Positions 6,747-15,962 of a stretch of DNA of 27,323 nt are shown piece by piece. Under the pieces are notes generated by a model, which had not been told where the DNA came from, searched no databases, and was given only the letters and a program-made list of their open reading frames with translations. How positions within the stretch are numbered: position 1 is the stretch's first letter; every line of letters begins with the position of its first letter. The DNA is taken from IMG/VR virus record IMGVR_UViG_2537561979_000007, positions 1-27,323 of that record. The stretch is one strand, 5' to 3'. Position numbers and translations under genes: made by a program. This DNA is from a virus. Lineage: Duplodnaviria; Heunggongvirae; Uroviricota; Caudoviricetes.

Positions 6747-7439
6747 TTAATTATGTCTCTTAAGGGTTTGCGACTGACTGATTAAGACCTTTCCAAAGAC
6801 CATGAATCGGTGTTCGTTTTCGCTAGTAATTCCCCATTCACGGTAAATCTGGTTATCAGAAATCACCAGCAGTTTGTCAGGAATCATTTGAAGTCTTTTA
6901 ACGTATATTTTGTCATCAAAACCAAAGACATATATACCATCACCATCAAACTGATTGATGCTGACATCAACGAAGATGAGATCTCCTGGCTCAATGGTTG
7001 GACACATACTGTCCCCACGAACGTTGATAACTTTGATGTGATTGGCCGGTCGTCCGCCGAACATTGATACAGCATTATCAGTTCTGTATTCGATGGCATG
7101 AATCACATCAATGACATCACCGCCCTGGATAAGGCCATTTCCCGCACTGGCACTGATATCCAGCATTTCAATACGGAACACATCCTTCACCTGCGCAACA
7201 TCCTCATTATTACTGTTTTTATATACAGTATTACTTTTGAGGGCAGAGGTAAAGAGATCAGCAATATCAACACCTAAGCTCTTGGCAATATTACTCAGTG
7301 TTTGTTCGGTAAATTGTTTTTGCTTACCCGTTTCTAAGCGCGAGATGTTCGCCGCATCTACTCCTATTGCTTCAGCGAGATCGGCGATTTTCATGTTCTT
7401 CGCTTGGCGAAGTTGTCTGACTCGGTTTCCTATGTTCAT
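6747..7439 (-). CDS. CI-like repressor: N-terminal HTH plus C-terminal S24 (LexA-like) peptidase domain, 230 aa
   Basis: HTH (MKIADLAEAIGVDAANISRLETG); S24 motifs GDSMCPTI (Ser) and KRLQ (Lys); divergent from a cro-like gene with operators between. Confidence 0.88.
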   Translation of the reverse strand: MNIGNRVRQLRQAKNMKIADLAEAIGVDAANISRLETGKQKQFTEQTLSNIAKSLGVDIADLFTSALKSNTVYKNSNNEDVAQVKDVFRIEMLDISASAGNGLIQGGDVIDVIHAIEYRTDNAVSMFGGRPANHIKVINVRGDSMCPTIEPGDLIFVDVSINQFDGDGIYVFGFDDKIYVKRLQMIPDKLLVISDNQIYREWGITSENEHRFMVFGKVLISQSQTLKRHN

Positions 7440-7536: not shown

Positions 7537-7797
7537 ATGCAATCACCATTACGAAATGTGCGTAAGGCGCATGGTTTCACTTTGCAGCATGTTGCTGCGG
7601 GTGTTCAAGTCAATCCAGCGACATTGAGTCGTATTGAGAGGCTGGAGCAGATTCCATCTATCGAGCTTGCAGAACGTTTAGCCAATTTTTTTAAGGGTGA
7701 AGTCAGCGAAATGCAGATTCTTTATCCGGCACGTTTTCAATCTAGCCAAAACCAGAATGGGTTTAAACCACAGGAACAGGAGGTGAACCGTGGGTAA
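7537..7797 (+). CDS. Cro-like HTH regulator (86 aa)
   Basis: GGAGGG SD then ATG; HTH-like segment FTLQHVAAGVQVNPATLSRIE; divergent from cI. Confidence 0.72.
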   Translation: MQSPLRNVRKAHGFTLQHVAAGVQVNPATLSRIERLEQIPSIELAERLANFFKGEVSEMQILYPARFQSSQNQNGFKPQEQEVNRG

Positions 7798-8691: not shown

Positions 8692-9633
8692 ATGAGCACT
8701 AAATTAACCGGCTATGTATGGGATGGTTGCGCTGCATCAGGCATGAAGTTATCCAGCGTGGCAATTATGGCCCGCCTGGCTGATTTCAGTAATGACGAAG
8801 GTGTGTGCTGGCCATCAATTGAAACCATTGCCCGTCAGATTGGCGCGGGGATGAGTACCGTTAGAACGGCTATCGCACGGCTGGAAGCAGAAGGCTGGTT
8901 AACGCGTAAGGCGCGTCGCCAGGGTAACCGCAATGCGTCGAATGTTTATCAGCTTAACGTTGCGAAGCTTCAGGCAGCGGCATTTTCTCAACTGTCAGAT
9001 TCTGACCCGTCAAAATCTGACGCATCAAAATCTGACCCGTCAAAATTTGATGCGTCGAAATCTGGCAAAAAAGCGGGTTTTCACCCGTCAGAATCTGGCG
9101 GGGATCCGTCAGTAAAATCAAAACATGATCCGTCAGATAAAAAAACTTCTCGTCCGGACGCTTCGCAACCGGACACGCAGACGGCTGAACAGGAGTTTTT
9201 AACTCGCCATCCTGATGCGGTTGTATTCAGCCCTAAAAAGCGCCAGTGGGGAACGCAGGATGATTTGACCTGCGCACAGTGGCTCTGGAAAAAAATCATC
9301 GCCCTGTACGAGCAGGCCGCCGAATGTGACGGCGAGGTGGTTCGTCCCAAAGAACCGAACTGGACAGCCTGGGCAAACGAAATTCGCCTGATGTGTGTGC
9401 AGGATGGTCGTACTCACAAACAAATCTGCGAGATGTACAGCCGCGTCAGCCGCGATCCGTTCTGGTGCCGTAACGTGCTCAGCCCGTCGAAGCTGCGGGA
9501 AAAATGGGATGAGCTTTCCCTGCGCTTATCGCCGTCCGTCAGCACGTACACCGAAAAACGCGAAGACCCGTACTTCAAATCCAGTTACGACAACGTGGAC
9601 TACAGCCAGATCCCGGCAGGATTCAGGGGGTGA
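8692..9633 (+). CDS. Replication initiator (lambda O-like), N-terminal HTH, 313 aa
   Basis: GAGGT SD; HTH-like N-terminus (SSVAIMARLADFSNDEGVCWPSIETIARQIGAGMSTVRTAIARLEAEGWL); iteron-like DNA repeats inside the linker-coding region. Confidence 0.68.
   Translation: MSTKLTGYVWDGCAASGMKLSSVAIMARLADFSNDEGVCWPSIETIARQIGAGMSTVRTAIARLEAEGWLTRKARRQGNRNASNVYQLNVAKLQAAAFSQLSDSDPSKSDASKSDPSKFDASKSGKKAGFHPSESGGDPSVKSKHDPSDKKTSRPDASQPDTQTAEQEFLTRHPDAVVFSPKKRQWGTQDDLTCAQWLWKKIIALYEQAAECDGEVVRPKEPNWTAWANEIRLMCVQDGRTHKQICEMYSRVSRDPFWCRNVLSPSKLREKWDELSLRLSPSVSTYTEKREDPYFKSSYDNVDYSQIPAGFRG
8994..9135. repeat. Iteron-like direct repeats (CCGTCAAAATCTGA variants, about 12-14 bp period) inside the O-like gene; putative origin
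   Basis: At least six tandem, degenerate copies read directly (ccgtcaaaatctgac / gcatcaaaatctgac / ccgtcaaaatttgat / gcgtcgaaatctggc / ccgtcagaatctggc / ccgtcagtaaaatca). Confidence 0.5.
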
Positions 9634-9635
9634 GC

Positions 9636-9965
9636 ATGAGTCTTTTGAATGACGTTCAGAAATTCATTGAAGCCCATCCGGGGTGTACTTCCGGAGACAT
9701 TGCGGATGCTTTTGCAGGTTACTCACGGCAGCGCGTTCTGCAGTCAGCAAGCAAGTTACGTCAGAGTGGGCGTGTGGCTCACCGTTGTGAAGGAGATACA
9801 CGCAGACATTTCCCGCGCCTGACTGAGAGAGCGCAGGAGCCGGAACCACAACCAGTTCGTGAAACCAGACCTGTGCGCAATTTCTATGTCGGCACTAACG
9901 ATCCCCGGGTGATTTTGTGCCTGACTCGCCAGGCGGAAAAACTGGTCAGGGAGATGGCGGCATGA
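9636..9965 (+). CDS. Hypothetical small protein, possibly winged-helix DNA-binding (109 aa)
   Basis: ATG at 9636 after AGGGGG; ATGA overlap with the next gene; no confident family. Confidence 0.5.
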   Translation: MSLLNDVQKFIEAHPGCTSGDIADAFAGYSRQRVLQSASKLRQSGRVAHRCEGDTRRHFPRLTERAQEPEPQPVRETRPVRNFYVGTNDPRVILCLTRQAEKLVREMAA

Positions 9966-10288
9966 CGACGTTAACTCAATGCCAGCAGCAGGTGCTGGAT
10001 ATGCTGATTTCTTACCAGAAAGAACGTGGCTTCCCGCCAACCAATCAGGAGGTGGCAACCATGCTGGGATACCGTTCAGTGAATGCAGCGGTGGAGCATC
10101 TTCGCGCACTGGAGAAAAAAGGCGTCATCACGATAAAGCGTGGCGTGGCCCGGGGGATCACGCTTCATACCGCGGTGAAGGACGACGACAGCGAGGCGGT
10201 CGGGATCATCCGCGCACTGCTTGCCGGTGAGGAGAACGCCAGGTTGCGTGCAGTCCACTGGTTACATGAGAGAGGCCTGAAAGTATGA
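9962..10288 (+). CDS. LexA N-terminal DNA-binding-domain homolog lacking the peptidase domain (108 aa)
   Basis: LTQCQQQVLDMLISYQKERGFPPTNQEVATMLGYRSVNAAVEHLRALEKKGVITIKRGVARGITL aligns by eye with the LexA N-terminal winged helix; no Ser/Lys S24 domain follows. Confidence 0.68.
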   Translation: MTTLTQCQQQVLDMLISYQKERGFPPTNQEVATMLGYRSVNAAVEHLRALEKKGVITIKRGVARGITLHTAVKDDDSEAVGIIRALLAGEENARLRAVHWLHERGLKV

Positions 10289-10674
10289 AGCTAATCCTGC
10301 CTTTCCCGCCCAGCGTGAACACGTACTGGCGACACCCCAACAAAGGGGCATTTTCTGGTAAGAGCCTGATAAGCGCGGCGGGGCGAAAATTTCAGAGCGC
10401 GGCGTGCGCAGCAATAGTTGAGCAGTTACGTCGTCTGCCAAAACCAACGTCGGCACCTGCTTCAGTGGAGATCGTGTTGTTTCCTCCAGATAACCGGATC
10501 CGCGATCTGGACAACTATAACAAGGCGCTGTTTGACGCCCTGACCCACGCGGGTGTGTGGGAAGACGACAGACAGGTGAAAAGAATGCTGGTTGAGTGGG
10601 GACCGGTTATCCCGAAAGGGAAGGTCGAGATCACTATCAGTAAGTATGAGAAACCGGCGGGTGCAGCCGCCTGA
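10285..10674 (+). CDS. rusA: Holliday-junction resolvase RusA (129 aa)
   Basis: RusA signature LPFPPSVNTYWRH ... RDLDNYNKALFDALTHAGVWEDD. Confidence 0.85.
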   Translation: MKLILPFPPSVNTYWRHPNKGAFSGKSLISAAGRKFQSAACAAIVEQLRRLPKPTSAPASVEIVLFPPDNRIRDLDNYNKALFDALTHAGVWEDDRQVKRMLVEWGPVIPKGKVEITISKYEKPAGAAA

Positions 10675-10693: not shown

Positions 10694-11491
10694 ATGAATA
10701 ATCTGATGGTCATTGATGGTATTGAAGTTCGTCGTGATGCTTATGGGCGTTACAGCCTGAACGATCTGCACAGGGCTGCCGGTTCTCTGGATAAGCATAA
10801 GCCTGCATTCTGGCTCCGCAATGAGCAAACTGAACGTTTAATAAGCGAGTTGCAGATTTGCAACTCGGTCAATATAGAGCCAGTTAACGTTATTCGTGGC
10901 GGAAATAACCAGGGGACGTATGTCTGCAAAGAACTGGTGTATGCCTATGCAATGTGGATCAGCCCGTCATTCCATCTGAAGGTGATCCGTATTTTCGATA
11001 TGGTAACCAGCACACCGGAAAAATTATCCGGGCAGGCTGCAGACAAGATGCAGGCTGGCGTGATCCTGCTGGACTTTATGCGCCGGGAATTAAACCTGTC
11101 TAACTCATCAGTGCTTGGAGCCTGTCAGAAGCTTCAGGAGGCTGTTGGCTTACCGAATCTGGCACCGCGCTATGCCATTGATGCTCCTGCTGACGCGCCT
11201 GATGGCTCAAGTCGCCCCACGCTGTCGCTGAGTGCACTGCTGAAACAGTATGGTATCCGCCTGACGGCTAATCAGGCATATCACCAGATGGCGAAGCTGG
11301 GGATCGTTGAACAACGTGAACGATACAGCCGTACCGCGATTAATAACATCAAAAAATTCTGGTCGCTGACGGCGAAAGGCTGCATGTTCGGCAAGAACAT
11401 CACCAGTCCGGCAAATCCGCGCGAGACGCAGCCACACTTCTTCGAATCCCGATTCCCTGAGCTGTTAAAGCTGCTCGATACCGTTCATTGA
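10694..11491 (+). CDS. KilA-N domain protein (265 aa)
   Basis: AGGAG SD; N-terminal KilA-N-like region (DLHRAAGSLDKHKPAFWLRNEQT...GTYVCKELVYAYAMWISPSFHLKVIRIFD). Confidence 0.75.
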   Translation: MNNLMVIDGIEVRRDAYGRYSLNDLHRAAGSLDKHKPAFWLRNEQTERLISELQICNSVNIEPVNVIRGGNNQGTYVCKELVYAYAMWISPSFHLKVIRIFDMVTSTPEKLSGQAADKMQAGVILLDFMRRELNLSNSSVLGACQKLQEAVGLPNLAPRYAIDAPADAPDGSSRPTLSLSALLKQYGIRLTANQAYHQMAKLGIVEQRERYSRTAINNIKKFWSLTAKGCMFGKNITSPANPRETQPHFFESRFPELLKLLDTVH

Positions 11492-11492
11492 G

Positions 11493-12488
11493 GTGACCGT
11501 GAGAGCACTACTGACCCCTGAAATTGCCCCGCGTATGGGGATCGTATTGTTCAGGCCTGGTTCAGAGCTGATGCCCTTGTTTATGCAGGGGCGTGTCCTG
11601 CTGGAGCCTGAGCCGGAACGTTATTCATCTTTCGCCAGTGGTGCCGTTCCGGCGGCATCACAACCACTGGCGGATGATCCTGCCATTCGGGCCGTGTTCC
11701 GCAATGAGGCAGTGATCCGTCGTGCTGGTGGCGTGGAATGTCTTGAAAGCTGGTTACTTCGTGAAAAAGGCTGCCAGTGGCCTCATTCCGACTGGCACAG
11801 CGAGAACATGACCACAATGCGACACGCGCCGGGCGCAATCCGTCTGTGCTGGCACTGCGATAACCAGCTGCGCGATCAGTTCACGGAACGGCTGGAATCA
11901 ATGGCAACGGATAACTGTGCCCGCTGGGTGTTATCTGTTGTGCGCCGTGATCTCGGTTTTGATGATAGTCACGTTGTGACAATGCCGGAACTGTGCTGGT
12001 GGCTGGTTCGTAATGACCTGGCGGATGCCTTACCGGAAAGTGCAGCCCGTAAGGCACTGAGATTACCGAAGCCTGTTGTGCCGTCTGTCACCCGGGAAAG
12101 TGACCTTGTGCCTTCGGTTCCTGCCACCAGCATCATCCAGGATAAGGCGAAAAAGGTGCTGGCGCTGAAAGTGGATCCGGAGTCGCCGGAGTCTTTTATG
12201 TTACGCCCAAAACGTCGCCGCTGGGTTAATGAAAAGTACACGCGCTGGGTTAAGACACAGCCGTGTGCATGTTGTGGAAAGCCCGCTGATGATCCCCACC
12301 ACCTGATAGGTTACGGTCAGGGTGGAATGGGAACAAAAGCGCATGACCTTTTTGTGTTGCCTTTGTGCAGAAAGCATCACGACGAGCTGCATGCGGATAC
12401 CGTGGCATTTGAAGAGAGGTATGGCTCCCAGCTGGAGCTGATATTTCGTTTTATCGATCGTGCGCTGGCAACTGGCGTGCTGGCCTGA
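11493..12488 (+). CDS. DUF968-type phage protein with C-terminal Cys/His HNH-like motif (331 aa)
   Basis: C-terminal CACCGKPADDPHHL...CRKHHDELH; Nin-region position. Start codon uncertain (GTG at 11493 or 11499). Confidence 0.62.
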   Translation: MTVRALLTPEIAPRMGIVLFRPGSELMPLFMQGRVLLEPEPERYSSFASGAVPAASQPLADDPAIRAVFRNEAVIRRAGGVECLESWLLREKGCQWPHSDWHSENMTTMRHAPGAIRLCWHCDNQLRDQFTERLESMATDNCARWVLSVVRRDLGFDDSHVVTMPELCWWLVRNDLADALPESAARKALRLPKPVVPSVTRESDLVPSVPATSIIQDKAKKVLALKVDPESPESFMLRPKRRRWVNEKYTRWVKTQPCACCGKPADDPHHLIGYGQGGMGTKAHDLFVLPLCRKHHDELHADTVAFEERYGSQLELIFRFIDRALATGVLA

Positions 12489-12505
12489 TTTTGTGGAGAA
12501 AGTTG

Positions 12506-12873: not shown

Positions 12874-12893
12874 AGGGCATTTCTGCCCTTTTT
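12874..12893. terminator. Bidirectional intrinsic terminator between Q and the convergent cassette
   Basis: AGGGCA-TTTC-TGCCCT hairpin flanked by AAAAA on one side and TTTTT on the other. Confidence 0.5.
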
Positions 12894-13335
12894 AAATGTG
12901 GGGGAGTATCCAGTTTACTTTTCTCCATGTAAAGGCAAAAGTTATTACTGAAATGATAAGAAGAGATAAAGATTCGATAATTAAAATAAATTCTATTTTT
13001 TCTCCATGTAACAATGTCTTTTCATTGGCAAACATTGCTATCAAAGCAATAACGCATGCCGTAATTAAAGATGCACCTGCGGTTAATAGATTTACAATAA
13101 TAACTTGAAGTATGTTGTTGTTTTTTAATGCTTTTATTATTCCATTTGAGTTTTCGCTAGCAGCACTAAAAATTGATATTGTGGCTAAAATAAAACCAAA
13201 TAAAATACCGGATACAGTTGAAATAACCCCGGAGGCTGTAAGTATGTCAGCATGCCCCATCTGAGGGATATACCTCAGTAGGAACAAGGTGCAAAAAACA
13301 CTTACAATCAGGTTTCTTAAGTATTTCAATAACAT
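12892..13335 (-). CDS. Small integral membrane protein, about four predicted TM helices (147 aa); second gene of the AT-rich cassette
   Basis: Four long hydrophobic stretches; AAGAAGG SD; separated by 3 nt from the upstream gene; visibly AT-rich. Confidence 0.62.
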   Translation of the reverse strand: MLLKYLRNLIVSVFCTLFLLRYIPQMGHADILTASGVISTVSGILFGFILATISIFSAASENSNGIIKALKNNNILQVIIVNLLTAGASLITACVIALIAMFANEKTLLHGEKIEFILIIESLSLLIISVITFAFTWRKVNWILPHI

Positions 13336-13338
13336 ATC

Positions 13339-14279
13339 CTATACCTTCTTTTTGCTGATATCGTATTGCTTAAGGTATTCATTGTTATCAATTTTAGCAG
13401 AAATCATGGCTTGCAGAACATCACTATCAGTGCCATAACCATTAACGGTATATATGTTTTTTTCTGAAATGAGTACCTGATCAAGAAGACTTTGTTCAAC
13501 GGTATTTTTGGGCTGTGTTACTGCCGCTTTTTTTACAATTCCCGGCATTTTTTCAAGGAGTTCTTTAATACCATCCTTAACGAGATCTGATAAATAACCT
13601 TTGACTTTTACTCTCCCTGATGCACGTCCCCTTAGATTTAACTTGAGACGTGTTCCACCCAGCCCTACCATCATATTTACCAGTTCCTTAGAAAATGAAC
13701 TATTTAGCTGGTAATTTGTTGCATCAAAGTTCCTGGGAGCAGCCAGGACAATATCACAACTTCTCAAAGTACTTCCTGTTTCAAGTAGCTCTTTGACGCT
13801 CTCTTTTTTCCAGATGGCTTGGAATGAAAAGTTATTTCCAGGATTACCACTCTGGCTGTAAAGCAGATAAGCTAAATCCGATTCTTTCGGCCCAAGATGA
13901 TTTTGAGTTAATATTAAAATATCACTATCGTAATAATATAAAAAATAGGTTCTTTCGACTATGTATTTTTTATCATCTAGTGGTATGTTGTGCTCATTCC
14001 AGTATTCATCACCAATATAAGGAAGGAGATACTCTTCTCGTGAGCATGACATGTAGCCGAAGAAATATTTAGCTTTTGTATCTTTATTTATAAAAGCTAT
14101 TTTTAACTTTTTATTTCTATAGATGGTATCAAAATGATTATTCGTAACGGTTACGCAAGTATTATACAGATTTTCAATTGCTTGCTTAGCAACTGAATGG
14201 CTGCGGATAGTCCCAGAACTGCTGGTGTAAAAACCAATTTTAAGTTTTTTTGTTTCTTTGATTGCGCAATAGTAGCCAT
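13339..14279 (-). CDS. Hypothetical cytoplasmic protein, first gene of the AT-rich cassette; apparent frameshift at an A7 tract near the 5' end (313 aa if the tract were A8)
   Basis: ATG at 14277-14279 with AAGG SD opens an 11-codon frame that runs into an A7 run (plus-strand T7 at 14245-14251); the 237-aa body (track ORF 13339..14052) is open in the adjacent frame all the way up to that run. Confidence 0.5.
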
Positions 14280-14759: not shown

Positions 14760-14909
14760 TGGCGGTTTCCTGCTGTGAAAATGGGCGGCTGGTGGGTGTT
14801 GGTAGCACCTGCCAGCCATTCGCTCATGCTTACTGGTCACAAGCGAACCACGGCCCACTGCTTTAGCGCAAAAGCAGAGTGAGCCTACCAGAGTTACGCT
14901 TACTGATCC

Positions 14910-15962
14910 ATGAAAAATACTGTAAAAATAAACAGTGTTGATTTAATCAACTCTGATTGCCTGCATTTTATTCAGTCCCTGCCTGATGATTCCATTGACC
15001 TGATAGTTACCGATCCGCCGTACTTCAAAGTGAAGCCCAACGGCTGGGACAATCAGTGGAAAGGGGACGAAGATTACCTTAAGTGGCTGGACCACTGTCT
15101 GGCTCAGTTCTGGCGGGTGCTGAAACCTGCCGGAAGCCTTTACCTGTTCTGTGGACATCGCCTGGCATCTGATATCGAGATCATGATGCGTGAACGTTTC
15201 AACGTGCTTAACCATATCATCTGGGCGAAGCCGTCCGGACGTTGGAATGGGTGTAATAAAGAAAGTCTGCGCGCATATTTTCCTGCCACAGAGCGCGTTC
15301 TGTTTGCTGAACATTACCAGGGGCCATATCGCGGCAAAAGTGACGGCTATGCGGCAAAAGAAAGGGAACTCAAACAGCACATAATGGCACCGCTGATATC
15401 GTATTTCAGGGATGCTCGTGCCGAACTGGGTATAACGGCAAAACAAATTGCCGAAGCCACAGGTAAGAAAAATATGGTTTCCCACTGGTTTGGTGCCAGT
15501 CAGTGGCAGTTGCCGAATGAGGCTGACTATCGGAAGTTACAGGCACTGTTTTCTCGTATAGCGGCAGAGAAGTTTCAGGAACAACAACTGGAACAACCAC
15601 ACCACCAGCTGGTGGCATCTTATGATTCACTGAATCGCAAATATTCTGAATTGCTGGATGAGTTTAAATCTCTCCGGCGCTATTTCTCCGTATCAGTCTC
15701 CGTGCCTTATACCGATGTCTGGACGCATAAGCCCGTTCAGTTCTACCCGGGTAAACATCCGTGCGAGAAACCGGCGGATATGCTCCGGCAAATAATCAAT
15801 GCCAGTAGTCGACCTGGTGATCTGGTTGCTGATTTCTTTATGGGATCCGGTTCCACAATAAAAGCAGCAATGGCGCTGGGGCGTCGGGCGTTAGGTGTTG
15901 AACTTGAGTCAGAGCGGTTTAATCAGACGGTGAAAGAGGTAAGTGAACTGGTGGGGAAATAA
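14910..15962 (+). CDS. Orphan DNA methyltransferase, beta-class (DPPY motif IV before FxGxG motif I), probably N6-adenine (350 aa)
   Basis: DLIVTDPPY near the N-terminus and DFFMGSGST near the C-terminus; no adjacent restriction-endonuclease gene. Confidence 0.85.
   Translation: MKNTVKINSVDLINSDCLHFIQSLPDDSIDLIVTDPPYFKVKPNGWDNQWKGDEDYLKWLDHCLAQFWRVLKPAGSLYLFCGHRLASDIEIMMRERFNVLNHIIWAKPSGRWNGCNKESLRAYFPATERVLFAEHYQGPYRGKSDGYAAKERELKQHIMAPLISYFRDARAELGITAKQIAEATGKKNMVSHWFGASQWQLPNEADYRKLQALFSRIAAEKFQEQQLEQPHHQLVASYDSLNRKYSELLDEFKSLRRYFSVSVSVPYTDVWTHKPVQFYPGKHPCEKPADMLRQIINASSRPGDLVADFFMGSGSTIKAAMALGRRALGVELESERFNQTVKEVSELVGK

Follow-up and report, generated by a model that had tools for sequence, protein, structure and literature searches.

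lexN, a common lambdoid prophage gene encoding a LexA-type winged helix without the S24 domain

The lexN gene and its product

The window analyzed here, the whole 27,323-nucleotide (nt) stretch of the caudoviricete record IMGVR_UViG_2537561979_000007 of IMG/VR, covers the left-hand portion of a lambdoid prophage that has its integration site at tRNA-Thr(CGT). It carries a gene for a 108-amino acid protein, the N-terminal part of which corresponds to the N-terminal domain of LexA. The gene is designated lexN, a name coined here. A sequence-only reading of this DNA had described the product as a LexA DNA-binding domain devoid of the autocleavage domain, and had proposed that it could occupy SOS boxes without being cleaved or form heterodimers with host LexA. 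The gene and the segments of its product are listed below, with confidence values (predicted local distance difference test, pLDDT) from an AlphaFold2 (AF2) model of the protein built on 19 family members, the mean pLDDT of which is 85.7.

9949..9954, plus strand: Shine-Dalgarno sequence GGGAGA, read from the sequence, 7 nt 5' of the lexN ATG
9962..10288 (stop codon included), plus strand: lexN, ATG start, 108-amino acid LexA-N-terminal-domain protein
9962..10165, plus strand: LexA-type winged helix-turn-helix (HTH), residues 1-68, three helices and a beta-hairpin wing (PF01726; pLDDT of about 90)
10079..10117, plus strand: recognition helix, residues 40-52, VNAAVEHLRALEK, with S39 just before it, in register with E. 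coli LexA PNAAEEHLKALAR
10166..10183, plus strand: flexible linker, residues 69-74, differing in length and sequence between family members (pLDDT below 50 at residues 71-75)
10184..10270, plus strand: family-specific helical hairpin, residues 75-103 (helices 75-88 and 93-103), a putative dimerization or partner-binding module (pLDDT of about 90)

Profile and structure searches agree on the identity of the N-terminal domain and bear out the sequence-only reading on this point. The Pfam profile LexA_DNA_bind (PF01726) is matched over its full length (positions 1-65 of 65; E=2.9e-19), with a score of 69 bits that lies far beyond chance and well above the cutoff of 23.7, and a phmmer search against the PDB places residues 2-70 of the protein on residues 2-70 of 1LEA, LexA's DNA-binding domain (E=6.8e-16). 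The AF2 model assigns helices to residues 6-22, 28-35, and 40-52 and strands to residues 56-58 and 66-68; its best Foldseek matches are 3JSO, 1JHH, and 1LEA, and its N-terminal domain superposes on the chains of DNA-bound E. coli LexA (3JSO/3JSP) at 0.9-1.0 Å over 67-69 residues with 50-51% identity. The resemblance ends with this domain. The protein stops at residue 108, no match to Peptidase_S24 (PF00717) was found in it by Pfam profile search, and the lexA equivalog profile TIGR00498 is matched only at positions 1-91 of 203, with a score of 70.7 bits that falls below the cutoff of 110.95.

The DNA-contacting residues of LexA on helix 3 are S39, N41, A42, E44, and E45 (PMC3091678), and the lexN protein keeps four of these five (S39, N41, A42, and E45), with valine at position 44. 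Its helix 3 reads S39-V-N41-A42-A-V44-E45-H-L-R-A-L against S-P-N-A-A-E-E-H-L-K-A-L in LexA, and the resulting signature, SxNAAxEHL(K/R)AL, is of the gamma-proteobacterial LexA type. The wing residues R64-G65-I66, together with K53, are invariant across the lexN family. When compared with the N-terminal domain of E. coli LexA (PF01726; 1LEA, 3JSO), the lexN protein shows the same fold, in register and at 50% identity, the same base-reading and wing residues at S39, N41, A42, E45, and R64-G65-I66, and a flexible linker after the domain. It differs in having V44 for E44, in its lack of the S24 domain, of Ser119/Lys156, and of RecA*-dependent self-cleavage, in its helical hairpin of 30 residues, and in being encoded by a phage, in the nin region.

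The hairpin follows a conserved pattern, EAVxxIRALL...ARxRAxxWL, in which L86, L87, A97, and L101 are invariant or nearly so, and it is missing both from LexA and from gp6 of phage GIL01, the truncated LexA homologue discussed below. LexA dimerizes through its C-terminal domain. Since a hairpin of 30 residues would be unable to bury its hydrophobic face alone, dimerization would probably occur through a four-helix bundle, and the hairpin most likely takes the place of the S24 domain and mediates homodimerization. The heterodimer with host LexA put forward by the sequence-only reading finds no such basis, as the protein has no match to the LexA C-terminal dimerization domain and its C-terminal 35 residues form an unrelated helical hairpin. 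Full-length relatives with this tail occur in Citrobacter, Salmonella, Cronobacter, Atlantibacter, Klebsiella, Enterobacter, Kosakonia, and Buttiauxella, among others, and the homologue in Edwardsiella phage EPP-1 is a tail-less protein of 71 amino acids. A different arrangement is seen in many database proteins (P0132, P0133, P0148, and P0152-P0156, among others), which carry two tandem LexA_DNA_bind domains per chain and no S24 domain, an alternative route to an uncleavable LexA-like dimer.

Selection, distribution, and genomic setting

Among 91 distinct lexN alleles, 59 variant codons are synonymous and 26 nonsynonymous, yielding a pN/pS of about 0.14, and residues 23-51, which span the HTH region, show no amino acid change at all; lexN is a real gene under purifying selection. 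What had been presented as a find is in fact one of the commonest genes of E. coli prophages, and it has been annotated before. Of 5426 complete E. coli genomes, 2233 (41%) carry it, as do at least 585 contigs of IMG/VR and 61 phage records of GenBank, including SfV (orf42), SfII, SfIV, cdtI, mEp460, and many Stx2a, Stx2c, and Stx2k phages, and full-length homologues with 41-68% identity are found in at least 10 enterobacterial genera. An identical protein is already public at NCBI as 'LexA family transcriptional regulator [Escherichia coli]', PHROGs labels the protein "transcriptional repressor", and in a survey of Stx phages it appears as a pfam01726 pham (PMC8136144). A functional study of the enterobacterial lexN protein was not found in the literature searched, the coverage of which was incomplete, and this absence is no proof that none exists.

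The surroundings of lexN in the window, from the host flank to the late region, are as follows, ORF standing for open reading frame.

1-1254: host ORF of 417 amino acids, which we take to be proA
1369-1444: tRNA-Thr(CGT), site of integration
1459-2622: ORF taken to be the integrase gene, from synteny with SfV and SfII
6747..7439, minus strand: cI immunity repressor, HTH_3 and Peptidase_S24 (PF00717, E=6e-19)
start at 7537: cro, the gene after cI
start at 7790: cII, CP76-type, the gene after cro
8692-9633: O-like/DnaD-like initiator gene, followed by the 111-amino acid ORF
9630..9965, plus strand: ORF of 111 amino acids, PerC/YfdN-like and ending in the last dam codons, coupled translationally to lexN (phrog_1324/phrog_23071)
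10285..10674, plus strand: rusA, Holliday-junction resolvase, coupled translationally 3' of lexN (PF05866, E=1.3e-14)
start at 10694: KilA-N protein gene, downstream of rusA
11493..12488, plus strand: DUF968/HNH-type nuclease gene (PF06147, E=9.8e-81; phrog_96 HNH endonuclease)
start at 12491: Q antiterminator gene, between the DUF968/HNH gene and the reverse-strand morons
12892-14052, minus strand: two reverse-strand morons, a 147-amino acid membrane-like protein and a 237-amino acid DUF6731 protein, between Q and the late promoter region
14910..15962: late-region N6/N4 DNA methyltransferase gene

The ATG of lexN overlaps the stop codon of the upstream ORF, and its own stop codon overlaps the start of rusA, with the sequence ATGA in both cases. 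These overlaps at either end and the ribosome-binding site make lexN part of a rightward delayed-early operon; by its position, lexN is a delayed-early gene of the pR operon, in the nin region, its timing of expression being inferred. The cI of the window has HTH_3 and Peptidase_S24 domains of its own, and the sequence-only reading was hence right to regard the lexN product as a regulator additional to the immunity repressor.

The immunity and early regions of the prophage are almost identical to those of Shigella phage SfII, the cI proteins being 99.5% identical. In SfII and SfV the gene order is PerC-dam-lexN-rusA, and alignment by blastn of the window with SfII (window 9500-9945 to SfII 31450-31895, and window 9930-10400 to SfII 32690-33160) reveals a 794-bp deletion in the prophage (SfII 31896-32689), with a 16-bp overlap at the junction. 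Through this deletion the PerC/YfdN-like gene lost its end and dam disappeared almost entirely; lexN and its ribosome-binding site were kept, such that the lexN Shine-Dalgarno sequence falls within the final 32 nt kept of the otherwise deleted dam. This arrangement without dam is also found in the annotation of many E. coli genomes.

Several further features of the prophage were noted along the way. The tRNA-Thr(CGT) site is presumably the thrW attachment site of the Shigella serotype-converting phages. The replication module (8692-9633) apparently comprises one O-like/DnaD-like protein, in which DPSKSDASKS repeats form a low-complexity region, and no gene for a P, DnaB, or DnaC-type partner follows it. 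The two reverse-strand morons have no match in PADLOC, and in other phages the same slot between Q and the late promoter is filled by different reverse genes, some of them with an SOS box upstream. Beyond the morons lie a late-promoter region, identified by reading, an ORF of 67 amino acids, the methyltransferase gene starting at 14910, and the holin and lysis genes. The 67-amino acid ORF and the methylase gene are separated by a non-coding leader of 150 nt (14760-14909), with about 90% conservation from E. coli to Kosakonia, that holds two hairpins (14787-14817 and 14858-14877); an Rfam search of the window returned tRNA only, leaving the leader without a match.

SOS boxes in the window and in related prophages

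SOS boxes were scored with a position-specific scoring matrix (PSSM) derived from 21 E. coli operators, of which only the umuDC operator was checked in the K-12 genome; in 200 shuffles of the window, the best score reached was 21.7. The sequence-only reading had named CTGT-N8-ACAG as the pattern to look for, and exact matches to it, found independently of the PSSM, are present twice in the window. Both can be regarded as candidate targets of the lexN protein.

7211..7230 (no strand assigned): SOS box TACTGTTTTTATATACAGTA, within the cI hinge-coding region, codons 70-77 (PSSM score of 27.0, against the shuffle maximum of 21.7)
14918..14937 (no strand assigned): SOS box TACTGTAAAAATAAACAGTG, over codons 3-9 of the N6/N4 methyltransferase gene (PSSM score of 22.3)

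The reverse complement of the cI box is identical at 20 of 20 positions to the K-12 umuDC operator, as verified in the genome, and the box is retained in all 80 of the cI loci examined, in which variants touch only spacer positions or the outermost base. By reading, its layout on the minus strand is that of the umuDC promoter, with a -35 element TTTACC (7253-7248), a spacer of 17 nt, and a -10 element TACTGT (7230-7225), for comparison with TTGATC, 17 nt, and TACTGT in umuDC. On the 3' side of the box, GAGGA (7205-7201) is followed after 10 nt by an in-frame GTG (7190, Val84). From such a promoter within cI, a C-terminal repressor fragment of about 147 amino acids could be produced upon SOS induction, UmuD-like, devoid of the HTH, and with the Ala-Gly site.

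The methylase box is found in each of the 79 methylase loci; it was also recorded at 34170-34189 of locus L001 and at 6794-6813 of locus L250, and the Kosakonia homologue of the methylase, with 81% amino acid identity, keeps it in a form changed toward the consensus. Two roles were considered for a box in this position, as a roadblock or as the operator of an upstream promoter.

CTGT..ACAG palindromes with spacings of 0-20 were also counted in 14 diverse lexN loci, and the N8 spacing was the most enriched (10 observed against 4.6±1.8). In Enterobacter TMH.L2 a strong SOS box, at -534 and directly 3' of TTGCAA-16-TAATAA, lies upstream of the cluster that contains the lexN homologue, and in Edwardsiella phage EPP-1 a strong SOS box likewise lies upstream of the cluster with the homologue. 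Judged from sequence, a box upstream of the lexN cluster in two distant lineages is the layout that would be expected for LexA-type autoregulation. Near lexN in other loci, a box that resembles a promoter site lies between rusA and a variant of KilA-N, and reverse-strand morons have boxes upstream of them. The strong boxes of these kinds in the nin and Q regions of related prophages, some of them beside promoter-like hexamers, were recorded at L256 9438-9486, L164 8231-8250, L013 10725-10784, L163 3994-4013, and L020 14349-14368. The recurrence of nin/Q boxes suggests that host LexA may directly control parts of the early-right region, independently of cI.

Candidate roles of the lexN protein

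The best single hypothesis for the lexN protein, held tentatively and with rather less than even confidence, is that of a RecA-insensitive LexA-type DNA-binding protein that occupies CTGT-N8-ACAG operators during lytic growth. According to this hypothesis, the winged helix would have been captured from a gamma-proteobacterial lexA and provided with a flexible linker and, in place of the S24 domain, with the hairpin. As it possesses no catalytic Ser/Lys domain, the product should not be inactivated by RecA*. In lytic growth, and especially after SOS induction has led to the cleavage of host LexA, it would bind CTGT-N8-ACAG sites as a RecA-proof surrogate of LexA and close again the SOS-controlled promoters of host and phage, which in the window would include the cI box and the box at the methylase start. 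In its favor stand the full-length match to the LexA domain, the four retained contact residues, the lack of polymorphism in residues 23-51 (gp6, which evolved a new site, has a diverged helix), the two high-scoring boxes of the window, the enriched N8 spacing, and the boxes upstream of the lexN cluster in two distant lineages. The identity of the domain, the lack of S24, the architecture, the purifying selection, the genomic position, and the presence of strong SOS boxes are observed; the dimerization, SOS-box specificity, time of expression, and physiological effect of the protein are all inferred properties. Non-cleavable lexA(Ind-) alleles encode RecA-insensitive repressors acting at CTGT-N8-ACAG operators.

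The two-hybrid use of LexA provides a further parallel. A LexA DNA-binding domain fused to any dimerizing module represses SOS operators (PMC12430536), and an architecture such as that of lexN, with this domain joined to a putative dimerizer, is therefore expected to act as a RecA*-resistant repressor. The proposed architecture would be the same in both, but the engineered fusions are laboratory constructs, whereas lexN is natural and phage-borne. In its fullest form, the surrogate would re-close host operators (recA, sulA, umuDC, colicins, and rival LexA-controlled prophages) as well as phage operators, among them the umuDC-type operator/promoter within cI, so that the SOS signal would be shortened to a pulse and the remainder of the SOS program would be kept from the induced cell. 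This extended version is rather unlikely as it stands.

Several observations weigh against SOS-box occupancy as the role of the family. All family members have another residue in place of E44, E45 gives way to leucine or threonine in the Klebsiella-type clade, and one Citrobacter clade has T42/G45; the loss of E44 throughout and of A42 and E45 in particular clades means that the specificity of the family is not uniformly LexA-like. The only truncated LexA homologue to have been tested, gp6, binds a palindrome that is not a LexA site and activates transcription (PMC6182141). The distribution of boxes is not specific to lexN either. The gene is present in 66 of 68 methylase-anchored loci and in 59 of 62 cI-anchored loci, but rusA, DUF968, and PerC are equally frequent there (94-100%); co-occurrence with boxes was hence rejected as specific evidence for lexN, since the association reflects a linked block of conserved genes. 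Comparison was also made with lambdoid loci lacking lexN, in which the absence of any homologue of the LexA N-terminal domain was confirmed by hidden Markov model search. Strong boxes were found in 18 of 34 Q-anchored loci with lexN against 4 of 13 without it, and in 29 of 58 DUF968-anchored loci with lexN against 11 of 34 without it; the overall excess (51% versus 32%) does not reach significance, and the loci lack phylogenetic independence. In 6 of 10 divergent lexN loci, as well as in mEp390, no SOS box lies within 10 kb. Host LexA alone would fully explain the boxes, which are compatible with an action of lexN and provide no evidence for it. Given that no lexN-specific link to boxes is seen in cis, the target, if SOS boxes are a general one, would lie mainly in the host regulon.

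The closest precedent leads to a different explanation. The gp6 protein of GIL01, a tectivirus of Bacillus thuringiensis, has 66 amino acids; its binding site, GaCACAnnTGTGaC, is at -43.5 of the late promoter P3, which it activates (PMC6182141). Like lexN, it is the product of an early phage gene and consists of a LexA winged helix without the cleavage domain, in a phage genome that contains host LexA boxes; it differs in its lack of a C-terminal hairpin, in its diverged recognition helix (SHKTAHRYL, with K38), and in its origin from a tectivirus and not a lambdoid phage. The lexN protein and gp6 match by BLASTP with E=0.004, and in a three-way alignment they share about 35% identity, against 44% between the lexN protein and E. 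coli LexA. The closer relation of lexN to E. coli LexA than to gp6 argues for independent capture, and the comparison points to two independent domestications of the LexA DNA-binding half, one from a gamma-proteobacterial LexA and the other from that of the Firmicutes.

By analogy with gp6, the lexN protein could be a LexA-derived, phage-specific factor that binds an operator of its own phage and activates or represses a phage promoter, leaving SOS boxes untouched. This alternative is possible but doubtful. Besides the precedent of a truncated LexA homologue with its own late-promoter site, it draws support from the fact that position 44 is never LexA-like and that positions 42 and 45 vary by clade, as expected if specificity co-evolves with phage sites, and from the many lexN prophages that have no SOS box nearby. 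However, searches over half-site spacings and for de novo palindromes found no conserved palindrome other than CTGT-N8-ACAG, only the N8 spacing being enriched, and a screen for palindromes with 5-nt half-sites around lexN in 11 divergent loci returned only GGTTGCnnnGCAACC, which sits within homologous O-like coding DNA. Moreover, the recognition helix of the E. coli clade is far nearer to that of LexA than is the helix of gp6, and late transcription in the window is already served by the Q antiterminator. The GGTTGCnnnGCAACC palindrome, conserved in the O-like/DnaD-like gene of divergent relatives, is possibly origin-related.

The genetic company of lexN suggests another role, as a DNA-binding accessory of the recombination and nuclease genes of the nin region (RusA and DUF968/HNH) or as a mimic of a nucleoid protein, in the manner of NinH and Fis. 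In the window lexN is translationally coupled to rusA, which adjoins it in 98-100% of the loci as well as in the majority of divergent relatives. The order lexN-rusA-(KilA-N)-DUF968 is kept from 98% down to 42% identity, while the upstream genes and the Q allele vary. The most constant partner is DUF968/HNH, which accompanies lexN at every locus (100%), relatives with 42-52% identity included, and is annotated at the locus of the homologue in a Klebsiella phage; in the Edwardsiella phage, the gene directly 3' of the homologue has a size similar to that of the DUF968 gene. The relationship is one-sided, as DUF968 also occurs without lexN, whereas lexN is always found with DUF968. A metagenomic protein of 240 amino acids, P0158, fuses a LexA-type winged helix to the C-terminal HNH part of DUF968, with the winged helix standing in for the N-terminal residues (about 190) of the latter. 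The fusion could have arisen by a chance deletion, or it could hint that lexN and DUF968 are functionally linked; as a singleton on one contig, it was set aside as a Rosetta-stone link and kept as a lead only.

A further parallel for such an accessory role is provided by lambda NinH, a homodimeric mimic of a host DNA-binding protein encoded in the nin region (PMC7166090). Like the lexN product, NinH is small, is encoded in the nin region, and imitates the part of a host global regulator that binds DNA, but it has a Fis-type HTH instead of a LexA winged helix and no sequence relation to the lexN protein, and it binds and bends DNA with little specificity. The strict retention of the base-reading residues in the lexN protein and the invariance of helices 2 and 3 favor sequence-specific over structural binding to DNA, and synteny among mosaic phages may mean shared descent and not shared function. 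An accessory or nucleoid-protein role is improbable; the stable synteny, the parallel with NinH, and the P0158 fusion keep the recombination-accessory version in play as a rival.

Interference with host proteins, through a heterodimer with LexA or through the LLAGE segment (residues 86-90) acting as a decoy or pseudo-substrate for RecA* or for an S24 protease, is much less probable still. LLAGE does align with the cleavage-site region of LexA, VAAGE (Ala84-Gly85), yet the protein has no similarity to the C-terminal dimerization and catalytic domain, the AG motif is replaced in other clades (ANE, ERE, TRK, SGG, DDQ, and others), and it is polymorphic in E. coli (A88V, G89D). LLAGE (A88-G89) as a retained cleavage site was accordingly rejected, being unconserved across clades, polymorphic, and unaccompanied by a catalytic domain. 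Lastly, a functionless, decaying remnant of a captured lexA, as the resemblance to a truncated host gene, the non-essential region, and the loss of the adjacent dam in this prophage might suggest, is effectively refuted by the low pN/pS, the conserved C-terminal module of its own, the conservation at 41-68% identity across many genera and the presence in 41% of complete E. coli genomes, and the preservation of lexN and its ribosome-binding site when dam was deleted.

Whichever role applies, lexN joins the phage-borne truncated homologues of LexA with a distinct architecture. Should it act through a site of its own or in recombination, it would still be an abundant, conserved, and uncharacterized gene of the nin region. 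If, on the other hand, the tentatively preferred hypothesis holds and the protein binds SOS operators, it would represent the second independent case, after gp6 of GIL01, in which a phage has domesticated the half of LexA that binds DNA, and a phage switch able to override the SOS response without control by RecA would be present in about 40% of the E. coli strains sequenced. Such a switch would bear on the kinetics of prophage and Shiga-toxin induction, given the presence of lexN in many Stx2 phages, on the competition between co-resident SOS-inducible elements, and on SOS-dependent mutagenesis under antibiotics.

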